Shown here in pieces: positions 27,747 to 64,000 of a stretch of 64,000 nt of DNA (the stretch's first letter is position 1; every line of letters begins with the position of its first letter). The DNA is taken from the NCBI GenBank assembly GCA_050273025.1, contig CP158635.1:18848001-18912000 (forward strand), in the 5' to 3' direction. Both the position numbers and the translations under genes were made by a program. Source of the stretch: Cenococcum geophilum. Lineage: Eukaryota. The notes under the pieces were generated by a model. That model was not told the DNA's origin and did no database searches. It was given only the letters and a program-made list of their open reading frames with translations.

Positions 27747-30700
27747 AATACATTCCAAAGGAGCTCTTGCTGCACCTGGCCTAAAAAGACCAAAACTAAC
27801 CAAAAGAACCCTGAAAAACACTCAGAGAATCCCCCTGAGATGCATGCATCGCAGGGGAGGCACACGTCAAACGACGGTGGCTCGCACTCGCGCGCGACCG
27901 CTAGAACTACGCCTAGCAATAGCCCTCTATAATAAAGACGGGCGAATATCACACTATAAAGCGGAAATACCTCTATTAAGAAGGCATCTAATAAAATATA
28001 AAGCCTATTAGACGCGTCTAGTATCTAGAATTATAGGGGAGTAACCGTTAGCTATAACAAACTAATACAGCTAGCAGAATGGCTCCGCCAGTCTAGTAAA
28101 CCTTAGGCGCCCCTCTAGTAAACCCTTAATTAAATCCTCTAACGGCTAAGTAAAATCAAAAATAAGTATAATCCCCCTTTACCGGCGAACCGCACTTAGG
28201 CCGCTATAGCTACGCTTTTACAGCATAGGGAACCCACCCCCCTTAAGTTAATAACTGGGTATATAATTATAATATAACCAAATATAGAATAAGTAGAGGG
28301 GCTTAGGGGATAATTAGAAATAGAAGTCCTTATAGAGATACGTAAAGAGGTCTATAACGCTATTATAGTCTAATACCTTAAGAGCGGAGATATTAGAGTT
28401 ACTTTAAAGAACTAATAGGTAAAGGAACGAGCCGTAAGGGCAGGGGATAGGCTAGGAAAACGTATTAGTATAAAAGTACTCCGTGAGGATTACCTAGTTA
28501 AAGTCCTAGTAGTTCCTATAAGCCTTAGGGTAGAAAAGGGACGCTAGGTAGATAATATAGTAATTATATAGGAGATAGTAAGATAAATGGAACGCTTTAT
28601 ACTAGGACTCGATAACACCTAAATCTAATGGCTTTAATAGGAAAATATAAACTAAGTATATAATAAGAATAATAAGAGGATATAAGGGTCGCTAAAGACT
28701 TATTAGGGAGACGCCGGACGAATATATAGCTCCCTTATTGTTAGTATATATATACCAGGAATATAAAAACTCCTTATCTAAAAAGGAATAATTATAAATG
28801 GCCTTATATATAATATAAGGCTTTATAACTATAGACTACGCCTAGAACAATACTATTGCTATATATAATAGGGACACACCCAATCTATATACGCAGCACA
28901 GGTGTGCTGCGGCCACTGTATAGGCCCCTATAATACAAGATATTGCTTAAATTAAGACTAAATAAAATACGTGAACTGCTACCGAAGTACACATAAGGCG
29001 TAGGAGAGAGAAGACTATATTAAATACAGGAGACGGAAGGTAAGGGCTTAACAGCTACGGGAATAACTGTACGCTAGGTCATACGAATAGAAACAACAGG
29101 CGATAAGTTAGGGGGACATAGGTGCCTTCCTAGCGTTTCCTACCTTTAATACTAGAGGGCTAGGCCAGCCATCCTAAGCCTTAACGGGCTAAAAGCGACG
29201 CCGCGCGATATTACTAGACCGATTAGGGATATAAGGGTCACAGGGGATATAAGGGAGAGGACGCCCCGTAGGAAGACCCCTATGGACAGCAATAATAGGC
29301 TTAAAACCAGGACAATTAAGAATTAGACTTAATGCGGTAAATATAACATTTATAGCCAACCTATAAAGGGCATATAGCCAACTAGTAAGAACAGGGGAAG
29401 AACTAGTAATAATAATAGATTTAGATATAGAAGCGCTAATAGGAACATAAAATACGGGAATGGAAAGCTCTATATAATAAGTAGTAACTAGGGTGTAGAT
29501 ACAAGAGATAGAAGCTCCAAATATTCTAAAGAAAGTGGAAATAAAAGAAGTAAGGAATAAAGGAGAGTTAAAGGACCCTTACTGGGGGTCCGCCACCTAT
29601 CTATTATATAGTATAACTGCGGTAACACAAACTACCGCCTTATAAGGCCCCTACTAGATAGTCTAGACTTAGAGAAATACTATATCCTTACTATATAAGA
29701 GCCGTATTATAATACCTTTATATAATTAACATACTGCCCCTAAGGATTCCAGCTCCTATATAAACTAAAAGCAGCCATACGCGTGTGCTTTATGATTAGC
29801 AAGGCCATTAGCCTATCCTTATAGTTATAGCAGGTAGTTAACCTAGATATTATAGTTATAATAATCCAAATATATAGGGGACCGGTACAAATTATTAATG
29901 TATATAACCCTAGGGTTAAAGGGGTCCCACAAACAGAGAATATTATATTAGTAATAAGCTTACTAGAAACCGAAGGTATAGAGTCTATCCTATTAGGAGA
30001 TATAAACCTCCACCACCCGCGGTAGGGGGGTATCTATGTTACTGCAGATTAATAGTTAGAGTGCCTACTAAGAGCTATAGATATTTGGGGCCTTAAGCTA
30101 GCTACCCCCCTAGGAGCAATTATATAGCAATAAGGCACCGCCAGAAGTATAATTAACCTCATATTTATGGACGAAGGCCTATACTAGAGACTTAAAAGGT
30201 GCAACCCTAAAGAAGAATAGGCACTTACCCTAGACTATATCCTTATCTAAATATAGCTAGACCTAGATACTAAAGCGCAACTAAATAGAAAAAGATACGT
30301 AATAAGGAAGCTTAAGATAGATAGTTTTCTTAATATAGTTAAATAATAACTCTAAGACCTAGAAGAAATCTACCTAATACCAAACAAGCGAGGCTTATTG
30401 GCCACCCCTAAGGAAATTGACCGAAGACTAGAAAGGATCTAGGTAGCAATTAAAAATAGGCTAGAAGAGCACTGCCCGATCTTAAAACCAGGCCCCTATG
30501 CGCGATATATATGGTTAATATAATACGTAGTTCTAGTTACTAGCTAATGACGAGCAAGAAGGAAATATATAAGTAGCTATAACCCTAAAGACGAGAGACG
30601 ATATAAAGATATAAGAAACTAGCTAAAGAATACCCTAAAAAAAGAAGTAAGGAATAACTGGAGATGGTTTATAAACGAGTATACTTTTAACCTAAGCCTC

Positions 30701-33296
30701 CCCCATAACAAGGGCCTTTAGGCTATAGCAAAATAGGTAAAGAAAAAGGTAGGGCGCCTAGTAGAAGACCTATACCTACCACCCCTATAAAGAGTAGGAG
30801 AATTATAGGCTATAAATAATAATAATAAGAAGGTAAAGATCCTTATAGAAAGGTTCTTCCCCTAACCGGCTCTAGTAGACCTTAGTAATATCACGGGCGA
30901 AACACTAGTGACTCGCCTACGGGTTAACAGCGATATAATAATAGAGGAAATGGCTAGAACTATTAGCCGCCTTTTAAATAATATAGTACTAGGACTAAAT
31001 AGGATTCCAAATAAGGCCCTAAAAACCTATAGGCCACTTATAGCACCTTAGCTTACAGATGTAGCCAGAGTATGCTTTACTATAGGCTACTACCCGCGAC
31101 TTAGAAGATCTATAATGATGGTTATCCTATAAAAAGAAGGTAAAGTAGATTACTTAATCCTAGGAAGCTACCGCCCTATTACCTTAGAAAATACCCTTAG
31201 CAAGATCTTAGAAAGGGTAATAGCGGAACATATAGTAGATATAGTAGAGGAATACGCCCTACTACTATAAAGCTAAATAGGGGCAAGAAAGAACCGCTTA
31301 ATACTATCAGCACTTACGCTACTCGCTACCACTATTAAATCTATATAGGCAATATAAAAGGACTTTGTGGTATTAATGCTTAGCCTAGATATTAGTAGTG
31401 CCTATAATAATATACCCCACAAGCGTCTCCTATATATCCTTAAGGTAAAGGGCTTCCTAGAATGGATTATATAATTTATTTAAGGGTTTACAGGCCAGAA
31501 AGAAACATTACTGGTCTTTAGCAGATACCAGAGCCCCCCTATTATAGTTGTAATAGGAATACTATAAGAATTACCCCTCTCGCCTATACTCTTCCTTTTC
31601 TTTATAAGTAACCTACTTAACTCCTTTAAGGAAGGGGCGACCTAGGGAATAGGCTTTATTAACGATATAAACCTAATTATATATAGGCTAATAGCCATAG
31701 AGAATTACAGAACACTAGAGAAAGCCTATAACACTTATATAGAATAGGCAAAACGTTATAGAGTCTAATTCTTACCAGAGAAATACTAGCTAATCCATTT
31801 TATAAGAAAACGTAACTAATCTGTAGATATCTAGTATATAATTCGTATTTAAGGCTTTAGGGGTTAACCAGTTTAGGGCCTAAGGGTATTAGAAGTATGG
31901 GTAAATAGCAAGCTCCGGTGGAGCGTATATACGGCATAAGCAGCCCATAAAGGCCAAGCACAGTTTATTGCTTTATTTAGGATTATTAATTCTATATAGG
32001 GTCTATGCTTCTAGAGGTTACGCCTACTATATATAGCAGTTGTCCGGCTAACCATGATATATAGATCCAGTATTTAGGCCATTGGAGAAACTAAGAAGGG
32101 CCCCCCTAAATTACTCCTTAAACCACTTTAAAAGGTCCAAATAGCCTACCTTTAGAGTATTATAGGCGGGTATAAGCAAACGGCCATAGTACTGCTTAAG
32201 AAGGAATCCAATATTCCCCCCCTATAGTTATATATTAAAGCCGCTGTAATATAAAGGACGTAAAATAAACGTAACTCTAATATTATAAAGTATATTAAGA
32301 TACGCCTAAGTAAACTATAGAGGGACCCTAGGGTGTCCTATAGGAGAACAAACCAACAACCCTAAAGTAGGGAAGAGATATTAGAGAAACAGGTAAAAAA
32401 AGTAAAAGAAAAATAGTGCCGCTTTAGGGCCTAGGCTTATATAGAGAAGGAAGGGAGACGTATAAGAGGTTAGTAAAGATAACAGTAAGATAGAGAAAGG
32501 AGCTAAAGTAAAACATATAAGAATGCCGGAAAACTATCTACTATAATATAATACTGGTTGGACCAACGCTAAAAAGGTAAATAGGAGTTAAAGGTATAGA
32601 GGCTGACTTAGGTAAGACGAACCTAAGCTATAGTATAGTTAACGCTATAGGGGGTAAATACCTAAGGGCTCTAAGAAGGCCTAATAAAGGCAGAAAATAT
32701 AATAGTAATACTCTTAAGAACAGGAATAATAGGACTAAAAGATTAGCTTTACTGGGTGGGTGTCTTAGTAGGCAGCCCGAGATGCGAATATAGCTAGCTA
32801 AGATAGATACCAAAACACGTAATACTGCTATGCCCCCTACGTACTAATTAAGAAACAATACTCTTAGTAGCTGGCATAGAGAACTATAATATACTACTCT
32901 TAATATAAAAAGGCCTTAAGGCGGTCACCTAGTGGGTTATTAGTTAAAATGTGCTAAATTAGTTCCGGGTTGTAAGGGAAATGGTAATAAAAGGTAAGGG
33001 GGCGAGCAGTAGGTGCCCCCTAGTAACTCTATAGTAGTAGAGTAAAAGTTTATAATACTAGCGCATCCGTAGGCTTGTTACGGCAGTAGTGGTTCCTAAA
33101 GAGGTTAAATAGTAAGGTAGTAGAGCACTATAGGTGACTTATAGGCGCTAAGTAGGCAAGTCCTAAAAGGCGGGGAGATGGATTACGGGGTTTTCTTATT
33201 TTTCTTAAGTAGAGTTTTCTCCCCATATGTAAATAAGGAGTAGTCCGCATGGGCCCAATAGGGATCTAAATCGGACGTTAAGCAATGAATTATTAT
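27747..33296 (+). mobile_element. Near full-length Tad1-type LINE (ORF1 with Cys/His knuckles; ORF2 endonuclease + RT), RIP-mutated
   Basis: 15-bp TSD TATATATAAAGTCCT (27732-27746, 33297-33311); LLGDINLHHPR (AP endonuclease); SYRPITLENTLSKILE and LSPILFLFFI (RT); short (TAT)n tail. Confidence 0.93.
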
Positions 33297-34581
33297 TATA
33301 TATAAAGTCCTTAACTGGTTAATTGCTATCTACCTTAGGTAGTTTAACCTTCTTATAATCCTTATACACCCTCTCCTATTTACGGAGCCACTTCTTAATA
33401 TTCTAACTCTTTAGGGCCCTCCTTATTTTAAAATATTAGGTAGCTAAGTTAACCTTTTAAGCGTTATTAGTTAGAGCGACTGCCTACTTAAGTAATATAA
33501 GGACATTATAGACGGTATTTCCTTTAAAGGTGTATTTAATATAGTTATAAGAGATCGTGCTAATAATATAGGTGTATAGAGATATAAGAGCTGCTTCCTC
33601 CTTCTTATATTGCTTATAGGCACAGTTATAGTATTTTTTATAGAGCTTAAAGCTCTTCCTTTTCGTCGTTATTAAGAGTTAAGTATATTATCTTTTAAGG
33701 ATTAACAACTAATAGTAAGGGCTCTAACAGTGCTCTATATCTAAATAAATCCTACTTCTTAACGCTCGGATTAATATATTCCTATATACCCTTACTGTCA
33801 GCTCTATACTTAATTACCCCAATCTATTAGTCCTAATCGTTTAGGCCAGCAAGGATTATAGTATAGGTGGTAATAAGCATTTCGGGTTATTAAGAGGATA
33901 TATTTAAGGCTTCTACTATATAGTTAATAATAAGGTAATTAAGACTTTAAATTAAAAGAGAATGTAATAGATAGCCCGGGCCTATAATTATTAAACGGAC
34001 AAGTTACTTATAAAAACTCTATCTATTAAAGCTGGCTCTAGAAGCTCTCTATATACATAAAGTTGGGGTAAAGGACTAACGATAACGCTGACGACGATTC
34101 TAGAGCTATTACTTAATTGCCACCAGGTCGATATTGCTACTTAGTTAGTAATAGGTAATGAATAGGTAATAGAAAGTAGATAGTAAGACATGCGATGGCA
34201 AGAAACAGGTGTAAGTCATAAGGTGGTACTTGACAGTGACCTTAACGTTTGACATGCAGTGGGAACTAGAACGGGTCCCGTTGAACATAAACCAGGCACT
34301 GCTATCAAACCATCCATTCTGGATCGCACTTCTGGGGCTCATCTAATCCTTTGTATTCGCATTCAGCCAAATACTCCACGCCGTCTCCCTTTAATCCCCG
34401 CGCACCATCGCCTCCCGCCAGGCACACCATCTAGAACGGTTAACAGCAGCGTATGCGGTCTCGTCGCTAGTCTGTCTATATCTTCCATCCCAGCGTCTCG
34501 CAGTGGGCAACCCCGATTTCCTTGCTCCTTTCTTACTTAGAAATCACCTGTCGAGGTTACCCTTCGCCTCCGAATCTAGCC

Positions 34582-34860
34582 ATGAGCCCGAAGACTCTCG
34601 AGCTTCCTCTGGGCCTATCTGCCTCCGATATAATCAGGGGAGGCACACCTAGGCTGGCTGCCTTAATTCCTCATACTCGAACGGTTCTCAAATTTTGCCA
34701 TGGCGATCCTGACAAGCACGATCGATGCGAAGCTCGAATGTATGAGCTGCTCAGCAAGTCAAACATCTTCAGACGGCTACCGTCCTTGTTATACGAGGGG
34801 AGGAGCAAGTGTGGTAGGGGAATACCTCTCCAACTCGCGGTCAAAGCGAGACCTCGAGGA
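34582..34860 (+). pseudogene. Protein-kinase-like N-lobe fragment truncated by an LTR insertion
   Basis: MSPKTLELPLGLSASDIIRGGTPRLAALIPHTRTVLKFCHGDPDKHDRCEARMYELL resembles a degenerate G-loop / VxK / helix-C region; it runs into the LTR at 34861. Confidence 0.5.
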
Positions 34861-36180
34861 TGTTGAGAATCGATCCTCTGGTGGCGTTGGGAGGCTGGGT
34901 TCCAGCCTCCTCAATATTGTATTATATAGCTACCAGCCTTCCCCAGATGGATGAATCAAGGCAATTAATGCATCTACACTCAACAGGTTATAAGCCCGGA
35001 TTATGCAGAAATTAAAAGCTAAGTCTTCAAGTACCTTAAATTAAATACATAATCTACTAAAAAATATATATTACAGGGGAACTCTATAGTCTTACAACTG
35101 CCTTCCGCTACGCATCTCTGCAATATATACACTATCTAAAATCTAACGCTATGGGATATAATAAAAAAGGGGAGACCTCTTCTGAGGAAGTTGGGCGTTA
35201 AGATACTAAAACTCAACTTTCTAAATTTCTTTAGAAACCATTAAACCCCTATACTAGCCTTCTATTCACAGGACAACCATACGTCTAAATTTTAAAATAG
35301 TTATATATCCTATCCAAAATTACTATAATAGTAAAGAAATTAATACCTTAATAATTACGCCAAAGGCCTAAAAGACCGCTTCTATACTAATTACAACCTT
35401 AACCTTTATAACTAGCATGGTTCTACCGCTTCCTTAATATCTTCCTTTACCTTTATATGGTTAAAGATATTAATAAAGACAATACCTATATCTTTATAAA
35501 AGACTTTAAGGATTAAGATTTTAACCTTAATATTATACTCAGCTATTCTAGTGATTTAGATGCTCTTTAATATCTAATAGTATACTTTCTATAGCTAGCT
35601 TAACCAAACTCTTCGACTTTAAAATTTAAACTCCGTAATTACCTCTTAAGACTATATCTAACCTATTGGATACGCTAAAGGATTCCAAAACTACATATAA
35701 ATCTATTAAATTAAAAAAATTAGAAACACTAAACCCCTCTAGCTCTATTACTAAGGACTTTAACTCTTTACCTAAAACTTTAACAGATTTACCTAAAACC
35801 TCCTAAACCTATTGTCGCTTATATATTACCTTTATATATCTTCTCTAAATATCCTAAACCTCTTTCTAGGCCCTAATAACTAAAACTATCCCTAATAAGC
35901 TTAAGAATTCTCTATTAGTCTTACTAAAGATATCTATAATTAAGGTAAAGATAAGCTTTACAGCTGAAAAAGGGACTAGAGGGCTAGATAAGATAAGAAA
36001 GCTAGAATCCACTATAATATAGATAGAGTTTATTAAATAGATACGCCTCTACTTATTAATAAACGGATATCGGGATCTACTTAAATAGAATATAAAAAGA
36101 CTAGAATAAGGGACCCTATTAAAGACAGTATATAAAACTAAGTTAAATACTTGGCTTAATAAACAAAAACGAGTATATAG
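34861..36180 (+). mobile_element. 5' LTR (34861-34985) and leader/gag of a copia-like element; 3' part not in the window
   Basis: TGTTGAG...CTCAACA termini followed by GGTTATAAGCCC, a post-LTR motif similar to that of other copia elements here. Confidence 0.7.
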
Positions 36181-38707: not shown

Positions 38708-38952
38708 GTATCTTCTATAACTATTACTAGAAGGTAGGAATAGAGTCTAATTAATACTACAACGCCTATTCCGTTATGCTTAAGGGCTAAGCTAGTACCT
38801 TCTATTATAATTATTTAGCAGGAAAAGGATATAATTTTGACCGTATAATATATAAGTTAAGATACTACTTTAAAACAGAAGAGAATAAGTAGTAGTATAT
38901 ATTAAAATAGAGAAAGACTACTTTTTTAAGGATTATTACTATAAACCTAGGT

Positions 38953-39037
38953 AGCCGTCGAAATCGGACTCTGCACCTGTACGTAGTGACGGCTACGAAC
39001 CTGGTCTTTGAAGTTTAGATCCAGAGCCAACGCAGAG
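38953..39037 (+). ncRNA. HDV-like self-cleaving ribozyme at the element 5' end (RIP-damaged copy)
   Basis: P1 (A/G)GCCGTC:GACGGCT, P2 CTCTGC:GCAGAG, P3 ACC:AGT (one G>A), L3 TGTACGT, P4 stem, J4/2 G-C-C-A-A; 85 nt. Confidence 0.8.
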
Positions 39038-39968
39038 ACGTCGCATAGCGTGCGGACAGGACCTGGTGGTGGTCGTAGGCGTTAAGGGCGGTGGTAAAAA
39101 ATTTTCGGATAGTGAGATCTTGAAAACCACTACTGTTGGCTCTCTACAATACGACGATTACTACGCTATTCTCCTATCTAGGGCACCTGTACGATCCAAC
39201 ATGGATATACAGTTTTCGATAATATCCCCTATCCCCCAGTAGAAAGCATTAACGACCTTATATTAATGAATAAATAAACGTAAATAAATAAACGAACGAG
39301 CAAATATACGGCCCCTCCTAACCCCTAGGGCGATCGCCCGTGGAGCATACGGTTACTCGCTATACTGCCGTAATACTACTAAAACCAATAGCCGGATAAC
39401 CCCGTACAGTTTTCCTTATCTCCTCTTAACAGAGTAGTGCCCTTAGAGAGGGCCTAGTGACTAGGGCCTAGGTATAAAAGATACCCAGATATATATCTCG
39501 CTTTCGTCTTTTAGTATTAGGATAGTAGAACAGATAAATCCCCCTTACGCCTTTAATAGGCCTTAGGGGGGAGGGAGGTATAGTATATATAGCAATAGTT
39601 AATAAGAGACAGTATATAGGGGGTAGTTAAGATATAGGATATAACTATAAGCATACGGCAATTAATCGGTAAGGCCTAGCTAGGACGTAGTGAACCCTAG
39701 CTTTAAATAAGCTAGAGAAGGAAGTAGTAGTTCCTAAGGAGTTTAAAACATCTAAGGAGGAGGACGTAGCTATAGGCCTATAGGGCCGCTGCTACGTACA
39801 GGCATGGCAATTTGGGTTTTTTTATCTTACTAAGGTGGCTTATAGGGTTTTTCCTCCCCCCTAATAGCAAGGGGTTTTTCCTATTAATATTACTTTCCCC
39901 TTATATACGGAGTAGTCTGCGTAGGCCTAGATAGGATCCGTATTAGATATTAATTAAAGAATCTACTA
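38953..39968 (+). mobile_element. ~1-kb non-coding non-LTR retroelement (SINE-like), copy 1
   Basis: Flanked by ~16-bp TSD (T)ACTATAAACCTAGGT; (CTA)n tail; no ORF; homologous to the copy at 56949-63875. Confidence 0.88.
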
Positions 39969-42900
39969 CTACTATAAACCTAGGTATCCCTTGGCTTAAT
40001 TATCTTTAAAAGCTCTTTAATTAACTTTAGATAATTTAGTGTGGTTTATCCAAATTATATTAAGAGGATTTTAGCCTATATAATTAAGTTATTAATATAT
40101 ACTAAGGTGTTAAAGAATATAACCTTACTCTTTTTAATCCTGTAAATACTTATAAAGGTATATATACTTAATTAAGATCTTCTATTAGCATCGCTCTACG
40201 CTTTTAAAAAGTATAGCAATTTAATGCCTAACCCTAACTGTTGGAAACATAGGGCAAATTACCAATACTACTTAAGTAGATACAGTAATGGAAAAGCTTA
40301 TTATTCTAAATAGGGGAGGGTAAGGAATTTAAGGTTCCTTACTATACTAGTGCCGCGACGGTATATGACGGTAAGTTGCCTTATATAATGGTAATATACC
40401 GCACGTAAGGGCAAATTGCCTTATTCCCAACACTAGCAACTCTTCTTTTTGTGGTTGCTATCTATATATAAATAGACAGTATATAATAATACGACCGTAG
40501 GCAGACTATAGTAGAATTTGGTAAGTAATACGCCTTATTTTACTAACCCGGACTTTTACTAACTAATTACGATTTTCTATCCCCGGGATAGAAAATCGCT
40601 ATTAGCTTGCTTACCACTAGCGCCTTAGCAGCCCTTGCCGCATTTTCTACTTCCTCTTAACCTAACCTTTAACTTATATACGTAGAGTATTCGTATTAAC
40701 AAACGTCTCTAGTGCCTTATTTAGGTTTGCCTTTATTATTATATCTACTAGGTTATTTTAGCCATTAATCTATTAAATCTTAAAGAGTTCTTAACGCTCG
40801 TAAGATTGCCGTAGTGCTATAATATTAATTATAAGGCGCTTCTCCTTTGTAGTACTAAGCTTAACTAAATACTTATAAAGGGAATATAAGTTAGTATATA
40901 CAATTATAGGGATAATAGGGAGTTTAAGTCGATCTATAATTATCTTTAAGGTAGTTCTAATTGCAATTACTATATTAACTCTACTAACTATTTTATATAT
41001 CTCTAACGCTAGAACGCTTTAAGTGACGCGTTTACTCTTAGTTAAGCTCTAATAGATAAAATTACCGTAGATTGTAAAGTCACTCTCTCTAGTAGATTCG
41101 TTCGCGATAATAATCTTATATTCTAGCTAGAAGCTAAAATCTTTATTATTTATAAACGATCTATTAACAAATATAAAAAGCTTAGTAGTAGGAAGGTTAA
41201 TAGGTACGTAGAGTAGTCCTTAATTAAGATAGCTCCTTTGCTAGAAAAGACGCTTATTTAGGGCAAGGATGTCCTTCTTAGTTAGTTCTTAGTATTAAGC
41301 GGCAATAGAGAGATTAAAGAAAGCTTTGGGTTAATAGATAGAAGCTATATAAGCTCCGCAAGCGCGTTGCTCCACGTATCCTTACTTTAGAGAATTAATA
41401 TTAATAACGTTAATCTTCTTACCTTAACCTTTCTAGCATAGGGCAATAGAATCCTTATTTAGGGAAATAATACATTTATTAAAGAGTAATAGTGTTATTA
41501 AATTAAGTCTTTCCTTTAGCTTTGCTATAAGATTTACCTTTACTAGCTTATCTTCTTTAAGAGCTAAGAATTAGTTGTCTCTTAAAATAATTATATTATC
41601 TATTTATATGCCAACGATTCTAAATAGAGTTCCTATAGCTGCGATAAGGAAGTAGGGATTAAATATAGAAGTAGTTATTAAAAGCTTCTCATTATAGTGC
41701 TTGCTATAGGTAGCCTACTAATAAGTTCCTACCTCTGTAATTCTATATAGTGGCTTAAGCACAACTATAATTGTATCTTCGGGATATTGGTGGCGAATTT
41801 ACTCTAGAAGGTATACTAGTATTAAGCGCTAAAGGCGTATCTCTAATTAGGTATAGGCCTAGATAATATCTTATAAATAAACCGCTATTTTATTCTTTAT
41901 TAAGAAGGGAGCTAGCGCAATAATAACTCGCTAACTAGCTTATTAAATTATAGGGGATTGCGTAAGAATTACTTCCTTACTATTATTGTTATAACCTTAA
42001 ATAACTAGCCTTAACTTCTTAAATGGGGTATTAGTAGCTTTGCCTTTAATCTTATTAACTATTCTTAACCTAAATATGCGAACCCTATTAAACTTAGTAG
42101 GGTTATACTTTTTAAACTTAAAGACTTCTCTTGCAATAAGACCGTTAATCTCCTACTTATTAGATGCTTGGAAAGGAGCTCCTAAAGTTATAATACAGCC
42201 TTCCTTTTAGAGCTGTTTTGCAAGCTTAAAGTTAGCCTTCTCTTTAGCTATTATAAAGGTCATTAATAGCTTAACTCTATTCTTAATAGCAATAATAAGT
42301 TGCTCTTTAAAATTAATAAGGTATTAGCGGTTTTGTAATCCTTTTGGGCGACCTCTACCGCGTTATAGTTGCGGCGTATCTACTATAGTTATATTAGGGT
42401 TGTAGTTGCCTTTTAGGGCACGTTAATCGTAGTTCTCCTCTAGGGTATTTCTTGGGGTATCTTCTAGGGTATCCTATAAAGGCTTAGAACTATTATCTTT
42501 ATAGTAAGGCTTAATAACAGTTAAATGGAATTAAGTAGGTCTATAGGGCATCTAAAGAATATAAGTCTAACTATTAATTATAATAAGTTTATATAGGCCT
42601 AACTATTCTTCCTTTTTACGCTATACGCGTACCTTAGATTAGAGTAGTAGATTAAGCGTAGTTAAGGTATTTAGGCCATTTCTTATTCCTAGTACGTTGT
42701 TAACCTAGCGCGTAGCGTAGAGATATCGTACCTCCTTTATTACCTTATAAATTGCCTTAGCTCGTTATATAATAGAGGGAAATAGTAGAGAATTATTAGT
42801 TATTTAAGGGTAGGCGCTAAAGACTAGTAGTATAGGTACGAGCCTATCTAGGCTAGCAGTATTGTTAATAGCCTTAATAGCCATCTATAGGATAAGCTCT

Positions 42901-45550
42901 TTTTTAGTACCCTTTAGTTTTAAAGAAATAATCTTATATACGCGGCGTAATGGCGTATAGTATTATTCTACCTTTTTAATACTATTATATGCCTTAACGG
43001 GGACTTCCTTAACCTTAATTATTATTACCTTTACCTATTATTAAAACTCTATAAATAAGAAGTTCTTTTCTACGTTATAAATAATTTAATTAGGGGGTCC
43101 TAGGTAGACATTAATCCAGTATAATTAAAGAGTATCCTATACGTTCCTAGCTAATATATCTTTTAAAAAGCGTGCGGCTTAGAAGAAGGTTAAGAAGTTA
43201 ATAACTTAAAGTATTGGCTTGCCGCTAAGATATATAATATCTATAATAATATAGAAGTTAAAGTTATAGTTATCTTTAAGGGTAAACTTAAATCGGCTAG
43301 GGGACTTCTGGTTTATTTAGCAGTAATAGCAGTACTTTATAAGATGTTTAATCGCCTTAACCTTAACTTTATAACCTACTTATTAAAGAACCCTAAGCAA
43401 TTAGTAAATAGATAGGTGGCTAAAATAATAATATAGTTAACGTAGCTCTAACTTAGTTAAGTAACTTTAAGCAACGCTCCTTTCTAGCTATTAAAGGAGC
43501 AACTAAGGGTAACCCTACTTACGTATAATGGGCACCCGATTATCTCCCTAAATAAGTATATTCTTAAGGTTGCTAAGCTTAACGCCTAATTTATCTATAT
43601 CTTAGATGCAGAATAGAAATAGGGTATTTATGGGAATAATATAGAAAGTAATATATTCTAATAGGGTTTGGACCTTAATTATACTAAAAGAGATTATAGT
43701 ACCCTTGCTAAAGCGAATTATATATTAGCCTGCCGTTAATTAGTTAATCTAAACAAAACTATTAAGCTACTAAAGAGCTTAGACTTAAGGTTCTCCTACT
43801 ATAAATACTCCTATAGCTCTAGTATCTAGTATAATACTATAAAAGACGTTCGCTAAGTATCTATTGTTAAAGAAGAACGCGGAATTTTCCTTTAGCTTAT
43901 TAAAGATATCTAACCTTATAATAGAATGGAGTGTAAATTAGTTATTAAGGACAGCAACGGTTTATATGCTATTTACCTTACTATACTTAGTAAAGTATTA
44001 GTTAGAAGAGTAGTCCTTAATTTCTATATCTATAAGAAGCTGTTTAGCCTCGTTAATCTTACCCTTAAGATCTTCTTCGCCTTTATATTAAACTAGAAAG
44101 CTTTAAAAGTAGGCTATAGTAACTTCTTAGTTTCTAACGTTTTGTGCGCTTTAGCAAAACTTATTATATACCTCCTTTTGTTTATTAAGGGGGTATCTAG
44201 TTAACTAGTAATTTGGCTTCTTATAAATATAGCATTTCTTCTACTAATTGTTGCGAAATGAACCTCTATAAGGACCTCTATAATTGCTTTATAGTTAATA
44301 TTAATTATACCCTCTACCGTATCCCCTACTATAACTACTATATATTTAATTAGTCTAGTTATAATCGTGTTAGTTAGCCAGGTTAATTAAAGTAGGTTAG
44401 AGTTAGGCGTTAAATTACTATACTTCTTAAGAGCGTAGGGCGGTGCTAATAGAGGATCTTAATTAAGTATATACTCCTTTATAAGTACTTATAGGGTTAA
44501 AAAAAGTAAGGTTATATTCTTTAATACCTTAGCATGCGCTAATAACTTAATCGCGTAGGCTAAAGTCCTTTTAATATAATTCGGATAAACTACGCTAAAT
44601 TATCTAGAGTTAATTAAAGAGCTTTTAAAGACAATTGAGTTAAGAGGCACCTGGGTTTATAGCAATAATTCTTAGAAAGGTAGTCTCTCTCTACTCCGAT
44701 ATATACTGCTACTTATTCTCCTTTATTTTAAAGTGACATCTTATTTCATATATTATTTAGTTAAAATTATATCCTTTTCCTACTAAATAATTATAATAGA
44801 AGGTACTAGCTCGGCCCTTAAGTATAACTAAATAAGTAATATAGTATTAATTAGATTCTAGTCTAACCTTTTAGTAATAGTCGTAGAAGATATATAACTT
44901 TAAATTAAGGATATTATACAGTTCTTCGCTAAACTTCTTCTCCTATTCTAAATAGAGCTTTATAAGCTTTATAAGCATTTTTAAGGTGCCTCTAATTAGT
45001 GTTTAGCTATATTATATTATAGGCTGTAATAGTAACATAGATCTAGTTGGCGGAGTTTAAAGGTTATTAAACCGCGAAGTAAAGGGATCTTGCGCTTATT
45101 AGGGGTTATTAATTAAGGCTATAGGTTAAGCTGGTTAATATAGAGGAGTTAAAAATAGAGGTAGAGGCAATAGATATAGAATGTTAGAACTTGTGCCTAG
45201 AGTAATAGAGTTAGAACGCGTCTCTAGTGGTATATTACTTGGGTTCTATCGTAATTTAAGCTTCTTTATAGTACGTAGTTAGTACTTAATCTCTTATAGA
45301 GTCTATTTATGCTCTTCCTTTATATTAATAACGTGTTCCTAAATATTATCCCTAATACTACCCCTATCTATAGGGACAAATACTCTATACTTCTAAAGGA
45401 AGTTACGGAAGTCCTATACAATATCTTTATTTATAGGAACCTATATTTCCTTTATTTATCTAATAAAGTCCTCCTTTATACAATACTTATCGGGAAAATA
45501 TTCGCAGGATGAGATTTAAGTAGACTTTGGTTTTCGCGTTTCGCGTAATT

Positions 45551-45905
45551 GACATGCAATTTAACCAACTCGACACGTAATTAACCAACTTAACACGCAA
45601 TTGACCAACTTAACATGCAATTTAACTAACTTAACACGTAGTTGACCTACTTAATATACAATTTAACTAACTTAATACGCAGTTAACCTACTTAATATGC
45701 AATTTAATTAACTTAACACGCAGTTAACCTACTTAACATGCAATTTAACTAACTTAATACGTAGTTGACCTACTTAATATATAATTTAACTAACTTGATA
45801 TATAGTTAACCTACTTAATATACAATTTAATTAACTTAATACGTAATTGACCTACTTAATATACAATTTAACTAACTTAATATATAGTTAACCTACTTAA
45901 TAACT
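45551..45905. repeat. Tandem array of ~20-21-bp units (TAACACGCAATTGACCAACT-like)
   Basis: Visible periodicity with alternating 20/21-bp variants. Confidence 0.9.
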
Positions 45906-45974: not shown

Positions 45975-46066
45975 TATATAATCCTATATAATCTTATATA
46001 ATCTCATATAATCTTATATAATCTCATATAATCTTATATAATCTCATATAATCTTATATAATCTTA
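45975..46066. repeat. 10-bp tandem array ATATAATCT(C/T)
   Basis: Direct reading. Confidence 0.9.
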
Positions 46067-46080
46067 TAGTCTTATTACTT

Positions 46081-56569: not shown

Positions 56570-57482
56570 GTTATTTTATTTCCTTTAAGGGTATAGACTA
56601 GGAGTGTCTTGGCTATTTAATTTAACTATATATATTAAGGCTTAATAGCCTATATTAATTTAATAGAGTTCTCCTTCTTAACTGCACTGTTTAATAGTTA
56701 TAAGCCCAGGCCATCTACTGCATTAACTTTAATTTAAAGGCTTAATTACCTTATTGTTAATATATAACTGTAGAAGCCTTAAATATGTCCTCTTAATAAC
56801 CTAAAATGCTTATTACTACCTATACCGTAATTCTCGCAGGCCCGAACAATTGGGACTAATAGATTAGAGTTATTAAGTATAGAGCCGACGTTAAGAATAT
56901 ATAGAAATATATTAATCTAAGTGTTAAAAGATAGGATCTACCTAAATAGTAGTAGTTCTTTGATTAACGTCTAATATGGATCCTATCTTGGCCCACGCAG
57001 ACTACTCCATTACAGGGGGGAAAACTTATAATTTACATAAAGAAAACCCTGCAGTTGGGGGAGGAAAAACCCTATAAGCAGCCTCAGTAGGATAAAAAAC
57101 CCCAATTTGCCATGTTTACACGTAGCAGCGGCCCTACGGGCCTACTGCACGTCCTCCTCCTTAGATATTTTGAACTTCTTAGGAACTACTGCTTTCTTCT
57201 CTAGCTTATTAAAGCTAGGGTTCACTACGTCCCAGCTAGGCCTTACTAATCGATTGCTGTGTCTTATTGTCTCTTTATATCCTATATCTTGCCCATCCCC
57301 TATATGCTATCTCTTATATAGACCACTGCCATATACGCCTTGCCTCCCCCCCCCTAGAGCCATTAAAGGCGTAAGGGGGATTTATCCATTCTAACCACCG
57401 TAATACTAATAAGCGAGCGGGATATTATGTATTTAGGTATCTTTTATACCTAAGCCCCAGCTAGGCCCTTTCTAAGGGTTAC

Positions 57483-60400
57483 TGTTACGGGACACCCCCG
57501 TAATACCTTGCACACATTTACCTATTTCCACCGACTTAGCAATTAGAGACTAACCGCGAAATGGCAATCTAACGGCAATCTAATGGCAATCTAACGGCAA
57601 TCTACGGCATTCTGCTATATTCTGCCAAGTTCTACTAAATTCTGCTAAGTTCTACTAGGACTATGACCTGAACCCTATTCTGCCTATATATGTGTTAACT
57701 AAGCAACCAAGTTAACAATATATGCCCTTTCTTCCCGTTTTCCTACCTTTTTTTCTTATGCAACGTCTTAACCTCCTTATACAGTTTATGTATATAGCTT
57801 AATAATATCTACCTTACTATATATATTATCGTCGCTTGTACTTACTCCGTAATACTACGTTGTATTAACTACCTACACTACCGTTAATATGCAGAACGAA
57901 CCTAAAGCCCCTATAACGGCCGCTGGTATTATAACCGCACTTTAAAAATAATTAGTAGGGATATAGAAGTCTTTTATAGACGCCCTTAAATAGAATTAAG
58001 CTACTTTAAATTAACGATAAGCCAAATAAGAAGCACAATACCAGCAATTAATTAAGGACCTCTAAGAAGAAGTCCGTGCCCTTAAAATGCCCACGCTAGG
58101 ACCTTAAGACTAAATGCTATCTCCGGAGATAAACACGCGAAACGCGAGCCCCGAACCCGCAGTAGCCACTTACCCTAAGCCGACTACTATACTAAAACGA
58201 TCCAAACAACTACTAGATCCCTTAGTATTTACTAGTAAACGATAAAAGCTCTAATTATTTCTAAGCTAGCTTAAAAATAAGCTAACTAGTAACGCTAACC
58301 GTTACCTAACTAAAGCTAACCAACTCTGTTACGCCCTAAGTTAACTAGGAGGAGATGCAGCCGACCTTATTAAACCTCTTTAGCTAAACTTAGTGTAAAG
58401 CCTAGTTATACTTCTTAAAGCTATATATAGTGACCCAAACCGCTAAGCTACTACTTAAAGAAAGATAAACTATATAACTTAAGGAACAAAAAGTTTCCTA
58501 GTATACTTCTCTAAATTTAACCGTTACGTAAAGGAAATAGGATGGAATAACTCCGCACTAATTAATAGCCTTATTAAATCCCTAAGCCCTAAACTAAAAA
58601 CCTCCCTAATAGGCGTAGACCTACTGGGAGCCCTTAATACCTGCGTAAACGTTATTAATAAACGGTATAATGATATACTACGCCTAATACTAAAGCCTAC
58701 CCCCTAATACAATATAGCAACCCCACGAACGTCTACTAAGCCATCTTAGCTTAAGTACCCTAACGCCATAGATATTAACACTAGGACCCTAGAATATGCC
58801 CTACTAGGGTCCTTTAAATAAGAATAACGCATTAAGCTAGGCCTCTGCTTTAAATATAGAAGTAACTCCCACCTCTTTAACTACTGCTCCGCCCCTTTTT
58901 AAAAAGACCTATAAATAGCTAATGCTAGTAGCCTACCGCCCTAATTCTCTAGCTACCGTCCCTAATCTTTATCTAGCTCTAGCTTGATAATTAGTAAGCA
59001 CCGTTTACGAGGACGAAGCTCCAACTAATATCCTATAAGAACCCCACCCCAATCGCCTCCAAAAGGAAGGTCCTAGAGCTAAGTCGCTCTCCGGGACGGC
59101 TCTACTACAGGATCTCGTTAAACGCATTTAACGTTATAAACTCCGACTCTTGGGACCATAGCATAACTATTAACTGTTATCTTTGGTAGAATAGTTAATA
59201 GGCTAACGCTTAAATCCTAATTAACACAGGAGCTAGCAGCATAGGATTTATTAATAAGATCTTTATGTAAGATAATGGTTTTACCCTAATCCCCCTTAAC
59301 CGGTATATTAACGTATTTGGATTTAATAGTAAACGCACCGTCTTAGGCCGTATTACCTATGTAGTAACCCTAAGACTCCAATACCTAAACCATGAAGAAC
59401 TAATTAAGCTTTTCGTTACTACCCTAGGTTACTTAGTGATCCTTAGACAACCCTAGATAAAGCTATATAAGGTAACTATTAATTAAAACAACCTTAAGCT
59501 TCTATTTACCACCTCCCGTTGCAAGTAGAAGTGCTTTATAACTTGCTGCTTAGACCCAGAACTAAAATCTAAAGAATCTACCAGATTCCACCAATATAAG
59601 ATTTCCACCGAATTTTACCGATATAAGAATTCTACCGACACCCACTAAGGATCCGAAAATTCTACTGAGCTCTATAAGTTATTACTAAGCACTACACCGC
59701 CCTAAACTAAATAGAAACTTAAGCTTAGCACACGAAACTACCAGAAGGACTGGTATCCTATAATAAAAAGAATACTTAAAGAACCCAAACCCAAATCTAA
59801 TACTGACTCTATACCTAATACTAAACCCAAACCTAAATAAGAAACTATAGACGAGCCGAACGAGCTCGGTACCCTAGATATCCGCATAATTAGAGCTACT
59901 CCGTTAGCGTAACTTGCTAAGAAACCTAAACATACAATCTTTGCTATTACTATAGCTAATATTAAGAAGGCCTTAGCACTAAAGAAGTATACTAACCCTA
60001 CTACAAAGGTACTAGTAGAGTACCATAACCGCCTAGAGGCATTCTTACAAAAGGAAGCCAATAAGCTACTAGAATACCGATTGTACGACTATAAGATTAT
60101 ACTTAAAGAAGGAAAGCAGCCTGGATTTGGACCCTTATACGGGATATCCTAAAACGAACTCTAAGTACTATAAAAGTATTTAGATGAGAACCTAAGCAAA
60201 GGATTTATTAAAGCAAGCTTATCGCCTGTGGCCGCACCAGTAATCTTCGTTAAGAAACCCGGCGGCGGTTTACGCTTCTGTGTAGACTACTAAGCTCTTA
60301 ACGCCGTTACTATTAAGAACTAATATCCAATCCCGTTAATATAGGAGACACTAAACTAACTAAGTAAGGCTTGTTACTATACGAAGCTTAATATTATCTC

Positions 60401-63385
60401 TATATTTAACCGTCTCCGCATTATAAAAGGGGATAAATAGCTTACTACATTTCGTACCCAATATGGACTATTTAAGTACTTAGTAACACCCTTCGGCCTC
60501 ACAAACGCCCTAAGCTTGTTTTAACATTATATAAACAACACCCTGCGCCCTTACTTAGACATCTTCTATACTACTTATATCGACAACATCCTAATATATA
60601 GTAATAACCTAATTAAATATCAGAAACATGTTAACCTTATCCTATAAGCCCTATACGGAGCTAGTTTATAATTAGATATAGATAAATGCAAGTTCTATAA
60701 AACGGAAGTCCTATACCTTAGACTCCTTATTTCTATAAACGGTATACAAATAGACCTAAAGAAAGTTAAAGTAATTGTAAACTAGCAAGAACCTAAGAAC
60801 GTTAAGGATATAAGAGCCTTTATAGGATTTACTAATTTCTACTAACGGTTTATTAATAACTTCTCCGCCCTAGTTTTACCCCTTATAGCTCTAACCTAAA
60901 AGAATAAAGTTTTTATCTTTAATAAGAAATGCAAGAAGGCCTTTGCCTATCTAAAAGTTATGTTTACTACTGCGCCCGTGCTCTAATACTTTAACCTAAA
61001 CTGAATAAGTGTTATAGAAGCCGACTTATCTAACTACGTCACTAGAGGCATCCTGTCTTAATATAACAAGGATGGAGTATTATACCCTATAGCATACTTC
61101 TTAAAACGACTAAGCCCAGCTGAATGTAACTACGAGATCTACGATAAGGAATTGTTAGCTATTATTAGGTGTTTTAAATAATGGCGACCTAAACTAGAAG
61201 GCGCTGGATTTCTAATTAAGGTCCTTAGCAACCATAAGAACCTATAGTACTTTATAACCACGAAACAGCTAAGTCATTATTAGGCCCGCTAGTTAGAATA
61301 TTTATCTCATTTCCGATTCTTAATTACGTACCGCCTAGGCGTCTAAGATTAAAAGCCTAATGCCCTAACCTAACGCTCGCAAGACGCGCCAGCCCTAGAA
61401 GAAGCGCGCTCTTACTAAAATCAGACCCTACTTTACCCTAAACTATTTAACCCTCCTACTAAAGATCTTACGGTATACGTCCTTGAAATAACCAATTAAT
61501 TAATTAAATAGATTATAGTCGATGAATACCTAAATAATGAGTTTATTTAAGAGATGCTTAAGCTAATATAAGATAGCATCAGATACTCTAAAAAGATTTC
61601 TCTAAGTAAATACGAAGCCCGTGGAAACCGCTTATATTACTAGAACCGTCTAATTATCCCTAATTATAATAAGCTTAAGCTTAAACTCTTTAAACACGTA
61701 TATAATCTACTTATTACCGGCTACCTGGGCCAAGGAAAGACCCTAGAACTACTCTAACGGGAGTATTATTGGCCAAATATGTATAATATAACACGAAGGT
61801 ATATCTCTAGCTGCTATACCTACCGACGAGCTAAAGCCTCGCATAAGACGTATAACGGTCTTTTAAAGCCGCTACCTGTTCCAAACTAAAGATAGAAGGA
61901 TATCTTAATTAACTTTATTATTAACCTTCCTAATAGTAGAGGCTGCACGAATATTATAGTAGTTGTAGACCAACTATCTAAAATAAGACACTTAATCGCC
62001 TGCCCTAATATATTAACGCCTGCTGTTACCCAACTATTCCTAGATTACGTATAGAAACTCCACGGACTCCCTAAAACAATTATCTCCAATAGAGGTAGCC
62101 AGTTTATCTCAGTATTCTAAAAAGAACTAACTACTTGACTCTACATTAAAGCACTATTGTCTACTATATATTACCTAGAAACGGATAGCCAAATAGAACG
62201 CGTAAATACTATAATAGAACAGTATATTTGGATATACACGTCGTATTTATAGGATAACTAGATTAACTGGCTCGTATTCGCCGAGTTTACTATAAATAAT
62301 TCCATCTCGGAAACCACGAAAGTCTTCCCATTCTTAGCCAATTACGGCTAGCACCCATAAATGGGTTTTGAACCCTTTAGTAATATTCCTTACCCTACTT
62401 ATTACGCCTTACAAGTTATAGAAGTAAATAAATTCGTAGAGAAGATAGAGAAACTATAATAGTTCCTTACTAATAAGATAATATAGGCTTAATCTATCTA
62501 TAAAGCCGCAGCGAATAAGAAATAAACCCTAGTACTAGCCTACCAAATTAGTAATTTTATCTGGCTAGATATAAGAAATCTAAACACGAAACAACCTACT
62601 AAGAAACTTAATTAGAAGAACGCTGGCCCTTATAAGGTTAAAAAGGTTATCTCTCCTTATACCTACTAACTGAAGCTCCCTAATACGGTTAAAATCCACC
62701 CCGTATTCTATACGTTAGTCCTCCGCCCTGCTACCCCTATATTAGACGCCCTGCCTAGATAGATATAAAACCCTCCCCTACCAGTTGAAGTAGATAGTAA
62801 GAATAAGTACTTTATTAAAAGAATTAACGATATTAAGTATGATAAACGGAAACGCTAATATATATATCTTACGAAATGGAGAGGCTTTATTAAGTCCTTA
62901 TAGGAACCCGTTAACTCTATAGGACTTATATAAGCCATAAAAGACTTTTATAAACTCCACCTAGAACTACCATAGCCCCATCTCGCAGAAGCTCAAGTTT
63001 AAAGGGGGGGTATTGTCACGGGACACCCCCGTAACACCTTGCACACGTCTACCTATTTCTACTAACTTAGCAATTAAAGACTAACCGCGAAATGGCAATT
63101 TAACGGCAATCTAATGGCAATCTAACGGTAATCTACGGCATTCTGCTATATTCTGCCAAGTTCTACCAAATTCTGCTAAGTTCTGCCAGGACTATAACCT
63201 AAACCCTATTCTGCCTATGCACGTGTTAACTAAGCAACTAAGTCAACAATATATACCCTTTCTTCCCGTTTTCCTACCTTCTTTCCTTACGCAACGTCTT
63301 GACCTCCTTACACAGTTTATGTATATAGCTTAATAATATCTACCTTGCTATATATATTATCGTCGCTTATACTCACTCCGTGACA
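57483..63385 (+). mobile_element. Full-length Ty3/gypsy chromovirus-like element (LTRs 57483-57854 and 63014-63385)
   Basis: 372-bp LTRs; [48 protein letters not shown], integrase and chromodomain-like YLTKWRGF; PPT AAAGGGGGGG. Confidence 0.96.
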
Positions 63386-63789
63386 GTTACCACTCCGTTA
63401 AAAGGAGATAGGGAAAACCGTGGGTCGCAATCCAAGCTGCTAGGTAGTATTTAGTAGTTGAAAACGGCAAGTAACTATATGCTCCGCGGGCGACTGCCCT
63501 AGGGGTTAGGAGGGGCCGTATATTTACTCGTTCGTTTGTTCACTCGTACGCTCGTTCGTCCGTTAATGTAAGGTCATTAATACTTTTTATTAGGGGCTAG
63601 GGGATGCTTTTAAAAGCTGTTTATCCACGTTGGATTATATAGGTGCTTAGTAGGAGAACTAGTGGCTATATTATAAAGGGGTACCATTAGTAGTAGTTTT
63701 CGAGATCTTACCATCCTATATAAAAACTTTTTACTACGCCCCACGACGCATATAACCACCAGGTCCTACTTACACGCGCTGTACAACGT

Positions 63790-63875
63790 CTCTGCGTTGG
63801 CTCTGGGTCTGAACTTCGAAGACCTAGGTTTGTAGCCGTCACCACGTACAGGTGCAGAATCTGTTTTCGACGGCC
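63790..63875 (-). ncRNA. HDV-like self-cleaving ribozyme at the element 5' end (core intact)
   Basis: GGCCGTC GAAAACAGA TTCTGC ACC TGTACGT GGT GACGGCT AC AAAC CTAGGTCT TCGAAGTTC AGACCCAG AG C CAA C GCAGAG: P1 with G1-U wobble, P2, P3/L3, P1.1, P4 and J4/2 in HDV order. Confidence 0.88.
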
Positions 63876-64000
63876 GGATCTACCTAAATATAGAGCCCCG
63901 TTAGAGCTATTACTATTAATTATTAACCCTTAAAAGACTACGTTCTTAACTCTTAGTAATAATAAAAAGGAAGAGCTTTAAGCTCTATAGAAATACTATA

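Follow-up and report, generated by a model that had tools for sequence, protein, structure and literature searches.

The DNA analysed here, referred to as the window, is a stretch of 64,000 nucleotides (nt) from Cenococcum geophilum (assembly GCA_050273025.1, contig CP158635.1, positions 18,848,001 to 18,912,000), which is AT-rich, full of repeats and has a few GC-rich islands. It harbours two copies of a repetitive element of about 1 kb, and window positions 38953-39037 form the 5′ head of the first of them, copy 1. We consider it likely that this head, damaged by repeat-induced point mutation (RIP), belongs to a non-coding retroposon dependent on a long interspersed nuclear element (LINE), and that in intact members a hepatitis delta virus (HDV)-like ribozyme of predicted catalytic activity sets the 5′ end.

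Two copies of a 1-kb element

The first letters of copy 1 are AGCCGTC at 38953, and those of copy 2, on the minus strand, are GGCCGTC at 63875 (Table 1). A Gypsy-type long terminal repeat (LTR) retrotransposon is nested in copy 2; its LTRs (57476-57850 and 63007-63381) are 375 bp long and 91.7% identical, and Pfam detected remnants of RVT_1, RT_RNaseH_2, Integrase_H2C2 and SH3_Tf2-1 on the plus strand. Without this insertion, each copy measures about 1.0 kb, and the two are colinear throughout. BLAST within the window aligned 38954-39438 to 63874-63389 of the minus strand with 74% identity, and 39440-39971 to the 3′ part of copy 2 (57478-56947) with 81% identity.

The copies are independent insertions, in agreement with the initial annotation, which had pointed to different target-site duplications and host elements. 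The duplications of 14-15 bp differ, the host repeats are mutually unrelated, and each has a paralog that preserves the empty site. In the BLAST search of 38900-40400 against the window, the flanks of copy 1 matched a single continuous stretch (44693-44396) with an overlap of 14 bp, which identifies an empty site and a target-site duplication; the flanks of copy 2 match 33627-34022 continuously, with an overlap of 15 bp. The common start nucleotide claimed for the two copies holds to within 1 nt. An A is also present after the 3′ duplication of copy 1 (39986), so copy 1 may start at 38954 instead of 38953, and its G1>A change is indistinguishable from a target-derived A.

Table 1. Features of the window related to the two copies, their insertion sites and the candidate partner LINE
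Feature	Position	Strand	Evidence
5′ target-site duplication of copy 1, CTATAAACCTAGGT	38939..38952 (possibly including A at 38953)	+	exact repeat; empty-site paralog alignment
3′ target-site duplication of copy 1, CTATAAACCTAGGT	39972..39985 (39986 if A included)	+	exact repeat
Copy 1, non-autonomous retroposon of ~1 kb, 3′ end ...AAAGAATC(TAC)3	38953..39971	+	
Empty site, unbroken paralog of copy 1 host repeat	44649..44693	-	BLAST and alignment
Copy 1 predicted HDV-like ribozyme, RIP-damaged	38953..39037	+	coordinates; covariance model 105.9 bits
Copy 1 P1	38953-38959	+	
Copy 1 J1/2	38960-38968	+	
Copy 1 P2, CTCTGC	38969-38974	+	
Copy 1 P3	38975-38977	+	
Copy 1 L3	38978-38984	+	
Copy 1 P3′ (AGT)	38985-38987	+	
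Copy 1 P1′	38988-38994	+	
Copy 1 P1.1	38995-38996 with 38979-38980	+	
Copy 1 P4	39001-39024	+	
Copy 1 J4/2	39025-39031	+	
Copy 1 P2′, GCAGAG	39032-39037	+	
5′ target-site duplication of copy 2, TATTTAGGTAGATCC	63876..63890	-	exact repeat
3′ target-site duplication of copy 2, TATTTAGGTAGATCC	56934..56948	-	exact repeat
Copy 2, 5′ part	63389..63875	-	
Copy 2, 3′ part, end ...AAAGAA(CTA)2CTAC	56949..57478	-	
Empty site for copy 2, within unbroken host-repeat paralog 33627-34022	33738..33752	+	BLAST, alignment
Copy 2 predicted HDV-like ribozyme, core intact	63790..63875	-	descriptor match; Rfam RF02682 17.5 bits (under gathering) at 63875-63782; own covariance model 112.8 bits
Copy 2 P1, GGCCGTC	63875-63869	-	
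Copy 2 P2	63859-63854	-	
Copy 2 P3	63853-63851	-	
Copy 2 L3	63850-63844	-	
Copy 2 P3′	63843-63841	-	
Copy 2 P1′	63840-63834	-	
Copy 2 P1.1	63833-63832	-	
Copy 2 P4, one A-C mismatch	63827-63803	-	
Copy 2 J4/2	63802-63796	-	
Copy 2 P2′	63795-63790	-	
Gypsy-type LTR retrotransposon nested in copy 2	57476..63381	+	BLAST; Pfam
RIP-degraded LINE, candidate autonomous partner	27747..33296	+	Pfam, 3′ homology, duplications

Start point of the family and predicted ribozyme fold

Further members of the family were searched for by scanning metagenome contigs with the 26-nt core pattern CTGCACCTGTACGTRGTGACGGCTAC; locus counts are among the matches listed. At least 121 further loci (L001-L121) possess this core, of which 41 (L081-L121) had flanks of 300 nt only and entered the ribozyme alignment and the analysis of the 5′ boundary, not that of element length. 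In 118 of 118 listed loci with at least 40 nt of upstream flank, similarity begins at one nucleotide (GGCCGTC), as expected from the defined 5′ end proposed by the initial annotation, and homology does not extend upstream of G1 in any of them. The 40-nt upstream flanks show no relationship to each other, with 27.2 mismatches on average and 10 at the least; inside the element, the first 18 nt differ by 1.3 on average. G occupies position +1 in 115 loci, A in two and T in one; both loci with A are preceded by T, which is a RIP context.

Element length was examined in 49 loci whose contigs offer 1300 nt or more on the downstream side and 20 nt or more on the upstream side. A repeat of the sequence abutting G1 (at least 10 nt, at most one mismatch) was found in 42 of these loci, most commonly with a length of 15 nt (16 loci) or 14 nt (12 loci). 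In 36 loci the element measures 936-1038 nt, and a duplication of 10 nt or more directly adjoins G1; L058 and five loci with lengths of 633, 862, 1175, 1388 and 1963 were left out as probably spurious repeats. According to BLAST against a canonical copy, the other 13 loci comprise nine full-length canonical elements and four interrupted ones (L022, L055, L074, L039), so that 45 of the 49 loci carry uninterrupted elements of about 1 kb and four are broken by insertion. Longer copies running into the second open reading frame of a LINE, named beforehand as the mark of ordinary truncation, were looked for, and none of the 49 loci continues into LINE coding sequence. The core pattern demands the ribozyme and is thus blind to 5′-truncated copies of the short element.

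The tails of the element are (TAC)n or (TAT)n, its target-site duplications vary in sequence, and it has no coding capacity, the longest stop-to-stop frame of the family consensus being 96 codons. Judged by its anatomy, it is a non-autonomous non-LTR retroposon of the type copied by target-primed reverse transcription. At the gathering threshold, no Rfam match to transfer RNA, 7SL or 5S was present in the window; promoter boxes were not searched for. Both window copies are full-length, short, non-coding, LINE-dependent retroposons and not truncated LINEs. The initial annotation was thus right to set aside random LINE truncation, although for a short non-autonomous element this was not the genuine alternative. 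The element explains a sharply bounded repeat of about 1 kb without protein or Rfam match.

At the start of the duplication, positions -15 to -10 before G1, a hexamer of T and A only is favoured (L001-L121; window 38939-38944 and 63890-63885), and from -14 to -10 no position has C or G in more than eight of the 118 loci. This preference suggests a TA-rich nick site for the endonuclease of a partner element.

The first 88 nt of the element show every sequence-level feature of an HDV-like ribozyme. P1 pairs GGCCGUC with GACGGCU (7 bp) and is closed by G1-U, followed by J1/2 (GAAA(U/A)CGGA), P2 (CUCUGC with GCAGAG, 6 bp) and P3 (ACC with GGU, 3 bp), which encloses L3 (UGUACGU). The GU of L3 pairs with the AC directly after P1′ to form P1.1, and the P4 hairpin is followed by J4/2 (AGCCAAC). 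The order of the parts is that of a nested double pseudoknot: P1, P2, P3, L3, P1′, P1.1 (2 bp), P4, J4/2 and P2′. In HDV and CPEB3 ribozymes, the catalytic C lies in J4/2, is followed by N-A-A and stands just before P2′. The corresponding motif is present here as GCCAAC directly before GCAGAG and includes the predicted catalytic C. Consensus positions 76-82 (CCAACGC) have a mean column identity of 0.984, and the commonest J4/2 variant, GCTAAC, alters only the N position.

The fold was evaluated on an alignment of 120 sequences (118 loci and the two window copies), 83 of them distinct. Standard pairs were found in 98.3% of 2101 cells (26 pairs in the 83 distinct sequences), compared to 27-45% when the 3′ partners were slid by 1-3 columns as a control. 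The closing pair is G1-U in 79 of the 83 distinct sequences, A-U in three, including copy 1, and another combination in one. Columns 20-45 are fixed by the search pattern and hence allow no covariation test. Changes on both sides of a pair are confined to P4, where they affect three pairs and 31 cells, a cell count reached by none of 500 shuffles. P4 also occurs in shortened variants, in ribozymes of 77, 78, 80 and 81 nt, which retain a perfect hairpin on the same CUG/CAG base.

A fold descriptor, relaxed after a stricter one had missed copy 2, has two matches in the window, one in TATATA-rich sequence at 15073 and one exactly at 63875; in 40 dinucleotide-shuffled versions of the window, matches averaged 0.125 per 128 kb, a chance figure that is indicative only. 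The strict descriptor had no real match, against 0.15 per shuffle, since a single A-C mismatch in P4 kept it from detecting copy 2; a looser one had 73 matches in the window. Our own covariance model recovered only the two known copies in the window, the next best score being 14.8 bits. In 80 loci with 313 kb of flanks it detected no diverged sister family and one extra RIP-damaged copy (L057, 1260-1346). Locus L057 thereby contains two ribozyme copies about 1.1 kb apart in opposite orientation, 1260-1346 on the minus strand and 2479-2566 on the plus strand; the former lacks the exact core and was detected by the covariance model alone.

Nested folding predicts two alternative hairpins in the ribozymes of L031, L069, L019 and L071 and at window positions 38955-38968: CCG(U)/(A)CGG, which joins the P1 5′ strand with J1/2, and CGUGGU/GCUACG. 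As modelled, the two together could form an inactive conformer that competes with P1 and P3.

Conservation was assessed in 36 full-length copies, with a minor allele of at least 10% counted as common polymorphism. The 22 core columns not fixed by the search (the 5′ strand of P1, two bases where J1/2 meets P2, some of J4/2, and P2′ with the two bases after it) include none with common polymorphism. Such columns amount to 12 of 40 in J1/2, J1.1/4 and P4, and to 368 of 923 elsewhere in the element (Fisher test, core versus rest, p = 2e-5; core versus J1/2, J1.1/4 and P4, p = 0.005). These counts, with a P4 hairpin kept through compensatory changes and deletions, bear out the earlier suggestion of a constrained core.

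Within the ribozyme, the two window copies are distinguished by position 1, three J1/2 positions together with the first base of P2, position 33 in P3′, position 45 in J1.1/4 and four sites in P4. They agree over positions 2-7 of P1 and throughout L3 and J4/2, as had been reported. P2 of copy 1 is indeed perfect (CTCTGC/GCAGAG), and that of copy 2 deviates from it only at the first base, which is still paired (U-G). The concentration of differences in J1/2 and P4 was correctly noted, but they are mostly differences between subfamilies and not decay. The ribozyme of copy 1 belongs to an 87-nt subfamily.

Copy 1 is 85.8% and copy 2 83.8% identical to a consensus of the family. C>T or G>A accounts for 94 of the 140 differences of copy 1, in line with the RIP signature described before, and for 83 of the 158 differences of copy 2. 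In copy 1, 47 of these changes lie in CpA/TpG and 31 in CpG, and the excess of C>T/G>A in CpA/TpG context relative to the consensus that characterises RIP was observed. The private ribozyme changes of copy 1 are G1>A, G33>A (P3′ GGT>AGT), C58>T and C65>T. The damaging ones, G1>A and G33>A, are both TG>TA against the consensus, as claimed, with the restriction that G1>A is not separable from a target-derived A. Copy 1 is probably a dead ribozyme, because G1>A turns G-U into A-U and P3 has a C-A mismatch.

Transcripts and a candidate partner LINE

Runs with the labels organism A and organism B, as well as several soil metagenomes, contain the sequence of copy 1, and four runs were aligned to 38850-40070 at 80% likeness. 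From run X21 (raw RNA-seq of 2026), 13,577 reads were mapped, mostly 80-95% alike, a likeness which implies that they stem from other copies of the family. Differences of mapped reads from copy 1 are dominated by A>G and T>C. A G stands at position 38985, the first base of P3′, in 1430 of 1434 and in 146 of 146 RNA reads; nearly the entire contig depth of two DNA runs (55 and 43 contigs) agrees with this.

In usual stranded libraries, an excess of first mates on the minus strand indicates sense RNA. In most bins of X21, first mates on minus exceed those on plus about 5- to 100-fold. No read covers 38850-38931 or the positions beyond 39998, and a pile-up of 504 molecule ends lies at 38965. The start of the RNA coincides with the first base of the element or lies at most 12 nt from it.

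The RIP-degraded LINE in the window possesses 15-bp duplications (27732-27746 and 33297-33311). Pfam analysis detected RVT_1 (E 5.8e-12) and, below the cut-off, Exo_endo_phos_2 (E 0.0025, 18.1 versus 27.4 bits). The search with nhmmer using both copies of the short element revealed one further match in the window, 33071-33293 on the plus strand (E 1.8e-9), which corresponds to the last ~260 profile positions. The short element ends in ...AAAGA..(TAC)n without poly-A, and the LINE resembles this 3′ end in its own final ~230 nt (33071-33296) and in its (TAT)n tail, the expected RIP product of (TAC)n. The likeness covers the last ~60-230 nt of the short element; over the final ~65 nt, several loci show 78-85% identity to the LINE. 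By sequence comparison, the short element and the candidate autonomous LINE thus have a common 3′ end.

The conserved 5′ end of the LINE begins with GGAGCTCTTGC at 27760 in three copies (window, L041 and L023). In none of these three copies was similarity to the ribozyme head found, and a permissive P1/P3 scan for an HDV-like fold at the LINE 5′ end gave weak candidates only, without P1.1. Pfam detected no family in nine frames of the LINE pieces in L023, L012 and L045. A short internally deleted element (SIDE) in the sense of Eickbush, with both ends derived from one LINE by internal deletion, was considered and rejected, since the LINE 5′ end in the three copies is dissimilar to the ribozyme head. 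It is possible that a different, ribozyme-bearing LINE exists elsewhere in the genome. Between the 5′ duplication of the LINE and the start of the alignment lie 13 bases (AATACATTCCAAA, 27747-27759), where L023 has an A run; they are possibly untemplated additions at the 5′ junction.

Two kinds of 3′ end were observed in the family. The first reads ...GACGTTAAT(C/T)AAAGA..(TAC)n. The second reads ...GAC(G/A)TTAAGCAAT(G/A)AAT.. followed by a short TA-rich repeat (TAT, TAA or AAT units), and nearly equals the LINE 3′ end at 33270-33296. The 3′ ends of L015, L036, L051, L059, L061 and L065 contrast with those of most other loci. The two kinds may reflect two lineages of partner LINE.

Inside copy 1, window positions 39301-39341 (about 351-400 of the family consensus) are GC-rich with many short palindromes (CCCCTAGGG, GCGATCGC, CCGCGG). 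This block is the best-conserved internal segment of the element (identity 0.962), and its contig depth is 3-7 times that of its neighbours in all contig-based runs; because of this depth it may be common to other repeat families. Elsewhere in the window, imperfect direct repeats with GTTAAGT...AATTGCAT... units were met at 45521-45737 on the minus strand, among the matches of the loose descriptor. GC-rich islands (0.44-0.55 GC) are located at 3001-4000, 8001-14000, 34001-35000 and 46001-47000, amid RIP-like repeats of about 0.30 GC, and are probably genes or unmutated sequence.

Alternative explanations and related systems

In the explanation we favour, the first 88 nt of intact members would fold as an HDV-like self-cleaving ribozyme. 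The element would be transcribed, probably often within a longer transcript begun in upstream DNA, and the ribozyme is predicted to cut just 5′ of G1. The released RNA, with G1 as its first base, would be reverse-transcribed at a TA-rich target by the machinery of the partner LINE, which would recognise the common 3′ end and the (TAC)n tail; full-length DNA copies would hence begin at G1, flush with a duplication of 14-15 bp. The anatomy of the element, its invariant start, the fold at the level of sequence, the conserved core, covariation in P4 and transcription of the sense strand are demonstrated, and we infer catalysis, co-transcriptional release and the identity of the LINE that supplies the enzymes.

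Several observations weigh against this explanation. No HDV-like Rfam match at gathering was present in the whole window. Among 4227 Rfam families, the best match of the 141-nt stretch around copy 2 was HDV-F-prausnitzii (RF02682, 17.5 bits, E = 0.23), aligned over the whole model (1-74) with its start at G1, and locus L113 matches drz-agam-1 (RF01787) from G1 with 16 bits, scores that are far under gathering (17.5 versus 44 and 16 versus 37 bits). Five of six intact loci tried lack an HDV-like Rfam match, and on copy 1 nothing HDV-like appeared at E values up to 10. The number of pairs changed on both sides is not above that of the shuffles, 347 of 500 of which reach the observed value; RIP could also account for the P4 changes, as these are transitions; and covariation is absent in P1, P2, P3 and P1.1, which are almost invariant, in a young family with columns 20-45 fixed by the search. 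The nested minimum-energy fold takes P2, P4 and the two alternative hairpins, not P1 and P3, in five of six sequences, and z-scores of nested folding range from -2.0 to +0.05. For L031, P1, P3 and P4 give -24.4 kcal/mol and the isolated P2 duplex about -8 more, compared to -32.0 kcal/mol for the nested minimum; in this energy model, the pseudoknotted fold is roughly as stable as the nested minimum, and thermodynamics is neutral evidence.

The transcripts also hold points of this kind. The pile-up of molecule ends lies 12 nt inside G1 (38953) and does not place the RNA 5′ end to the nucleotide. Library construction can lose the extreme 5′ end of an RNA, and the offset possibly reflects such loss, alignment clipping or a real end. 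One RNA-library contig of 1039 nt (X15 record 9) carries 925 nt upstream of the ribozyme, its positions 926-1021 aligning to 38958-39054; this may represent a read-through transcript that escaped cleavage, or DNA contaminating the library. Finally, a fixed start can be explained without a ribozyme, by an internal promoter.

That last possibility is the real rival to the ribozyme, in place of LINE truncation. Transcription would start from an internal promoter in the first ~100 nt, like Pr77 in L1Tc, and the fold would be non-catalytic and kept as a DNA promoter or a protein-bound RNA structure. A defined start is expected for any full-length retroposon, conservation in a core without covariation may act on sequence and not on pairing, transcripts are abundant with no mapped read upstream of the element, and P1 and P3 are not favoured in nested folding. 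Nevertheless, we regard this explanation as unlikely: all HDV-like hallmarks co-occur, with the predicted cut exactly at the first nucleotide after the duplication and with the indicative chance rate given above; a P4 hairpin kept through compensatory changes and deletions indicates constraint on RNA and not on DNA; and the best Rfam matches are HDV-like families in the exact register. Moreover, promoter and ribozyme are able to coexist, as reported for L1Tc (PMC3383444).

Less probable still is a coincidental HDV-like resemblance, with the 5′ segment conserved for an unrelated reason. The descriptor was tuned after the sequence had been seen, with 73 matches in its loose form and copy 2 missed in its strict form, and the Rfam matches are under threshold. 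However, seven independent structural requirements are found in the right order and spacing from nucleotide 1, the proportion of paired cells far exceeds that of the slid control, and GCCAAC in J4/2 and UGUACGU in L3 fit the pattern of the Rfam-aligned family. We give practically no credence to the explanation that copies 1 and 2 are ordinary 5′-truncated LINEs broken at the same place by chance. The single point in its favour is that ribozyme-less copies escape the search, so 5′-truncated short elements may exist unseen; against it, both ends are fixed at ~1 kb in 45 of 49 loci and the other four are insertion-broken, no upstream sequence is common to the 118 copies, and the LINE has a 5′ end of its own.

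The ribozyme-headed retroposon that we favour resembles several known systems. Insects, nematodes, other animals and trypanosomes are established hosts of non-LTR retrotransposons headed by an HDV-like ribozyme. A review describes such ribozymes at the 5′ ends of R2, L1Tc, baggins, RTE and some short interspersed nuclear elements (SINEs) (PMC6765202). In that source, genomes contain hundreds of ribozyme copies whose downstream sequence is conserved while the upstream sequence varies, and elements lacking a promoter rely on read-through. LINEs and SINEs such as RTE and baggins show the same pattern as the present family; these examples are described as metazoan (PMC6765202), no fungal case being met among them, and the present host is a fungus.

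The R2 SIDEs and R2/R1 hybrid SIDEs of Drosophila are likewise short and non-autonomous, with a 5′ HDV-like ribozyme and a 3′ end recognised by a LINE, and the ribozyme is said to create a precise 5′ end by cutting a co-transcript (PMC3414825). The hybrid SIDE, which combines a ribozyme with the 3′ end of another LINE and has 14-bp duplications, is the nearest precedent (PMC3414825). However, SIDEs are specific to ribosomal RNA genes and described as rare, and their ribozymes derive from R2 (PMC3414825), whereas the present family is dispersed at TA-rich sites in more than 120 copies and no ribozyme-carrying LINE was found for it. The present family also differs in its fungal host and in that its ribozyme activity is a prediction from sequence.

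Similar to the present family, the autonomous LINE L1Tc and its non-autonomous derivative NARTc, with the L1Tc/ingi clade of trypanosomatids, possess an HDV-like ribozyme in the very first ~77 nt, which frees the RNA from co-transcripts (PMC3185411, PMC3383444, PMC4035085). In trypanosomes, one and the same head is found on LINE and derivative and also acts as an internal promoter (PMC3383444), whereas the LINE described here has another 5′ end in its three copies. With regard to Rfam, the Faecalibacterium prausnitzii HDV ribozyme (RF02682) and drz-agam-1 (RF01787) both align over the whole model, starting at G1. P3-L3-P3′ is nearly identical to the RF02682 consensus (CACCUCUaCGUGGuGa versus CACCUGUACGUGGUGA), but J1/2 and P4 differ from those of both families. 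Membership in RF02682, RF01787, RF00094 and RF00622 was rejected, as no score reached gathering.

No fungal HDV-like retroposon surfaced in the literature searched, which was partial, and an earlier report is possible. The family is probably a new fungal member of the known ribozyme-headed retroposons and the first in fungi. Tentatively, and with slightly more doubt than belief, we extend this to a first HDV-like family in fungi that is an abundant, transcribed, promoter-less "ribozyme-headed SINE", whose head was acquired independently of the partner LINE and lets it spread from any read-through transcript. Provided that the ribozyme is active, the mechanism would be extended to fungi, and more than 80 natural variants, with four P4 length classes and RIP-damaged copies, would be available for structure-function work. 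An active ribozyme head on the tail of a LINE that itself lacks this head would also bear on how non-autonomous retroposons are assembled.

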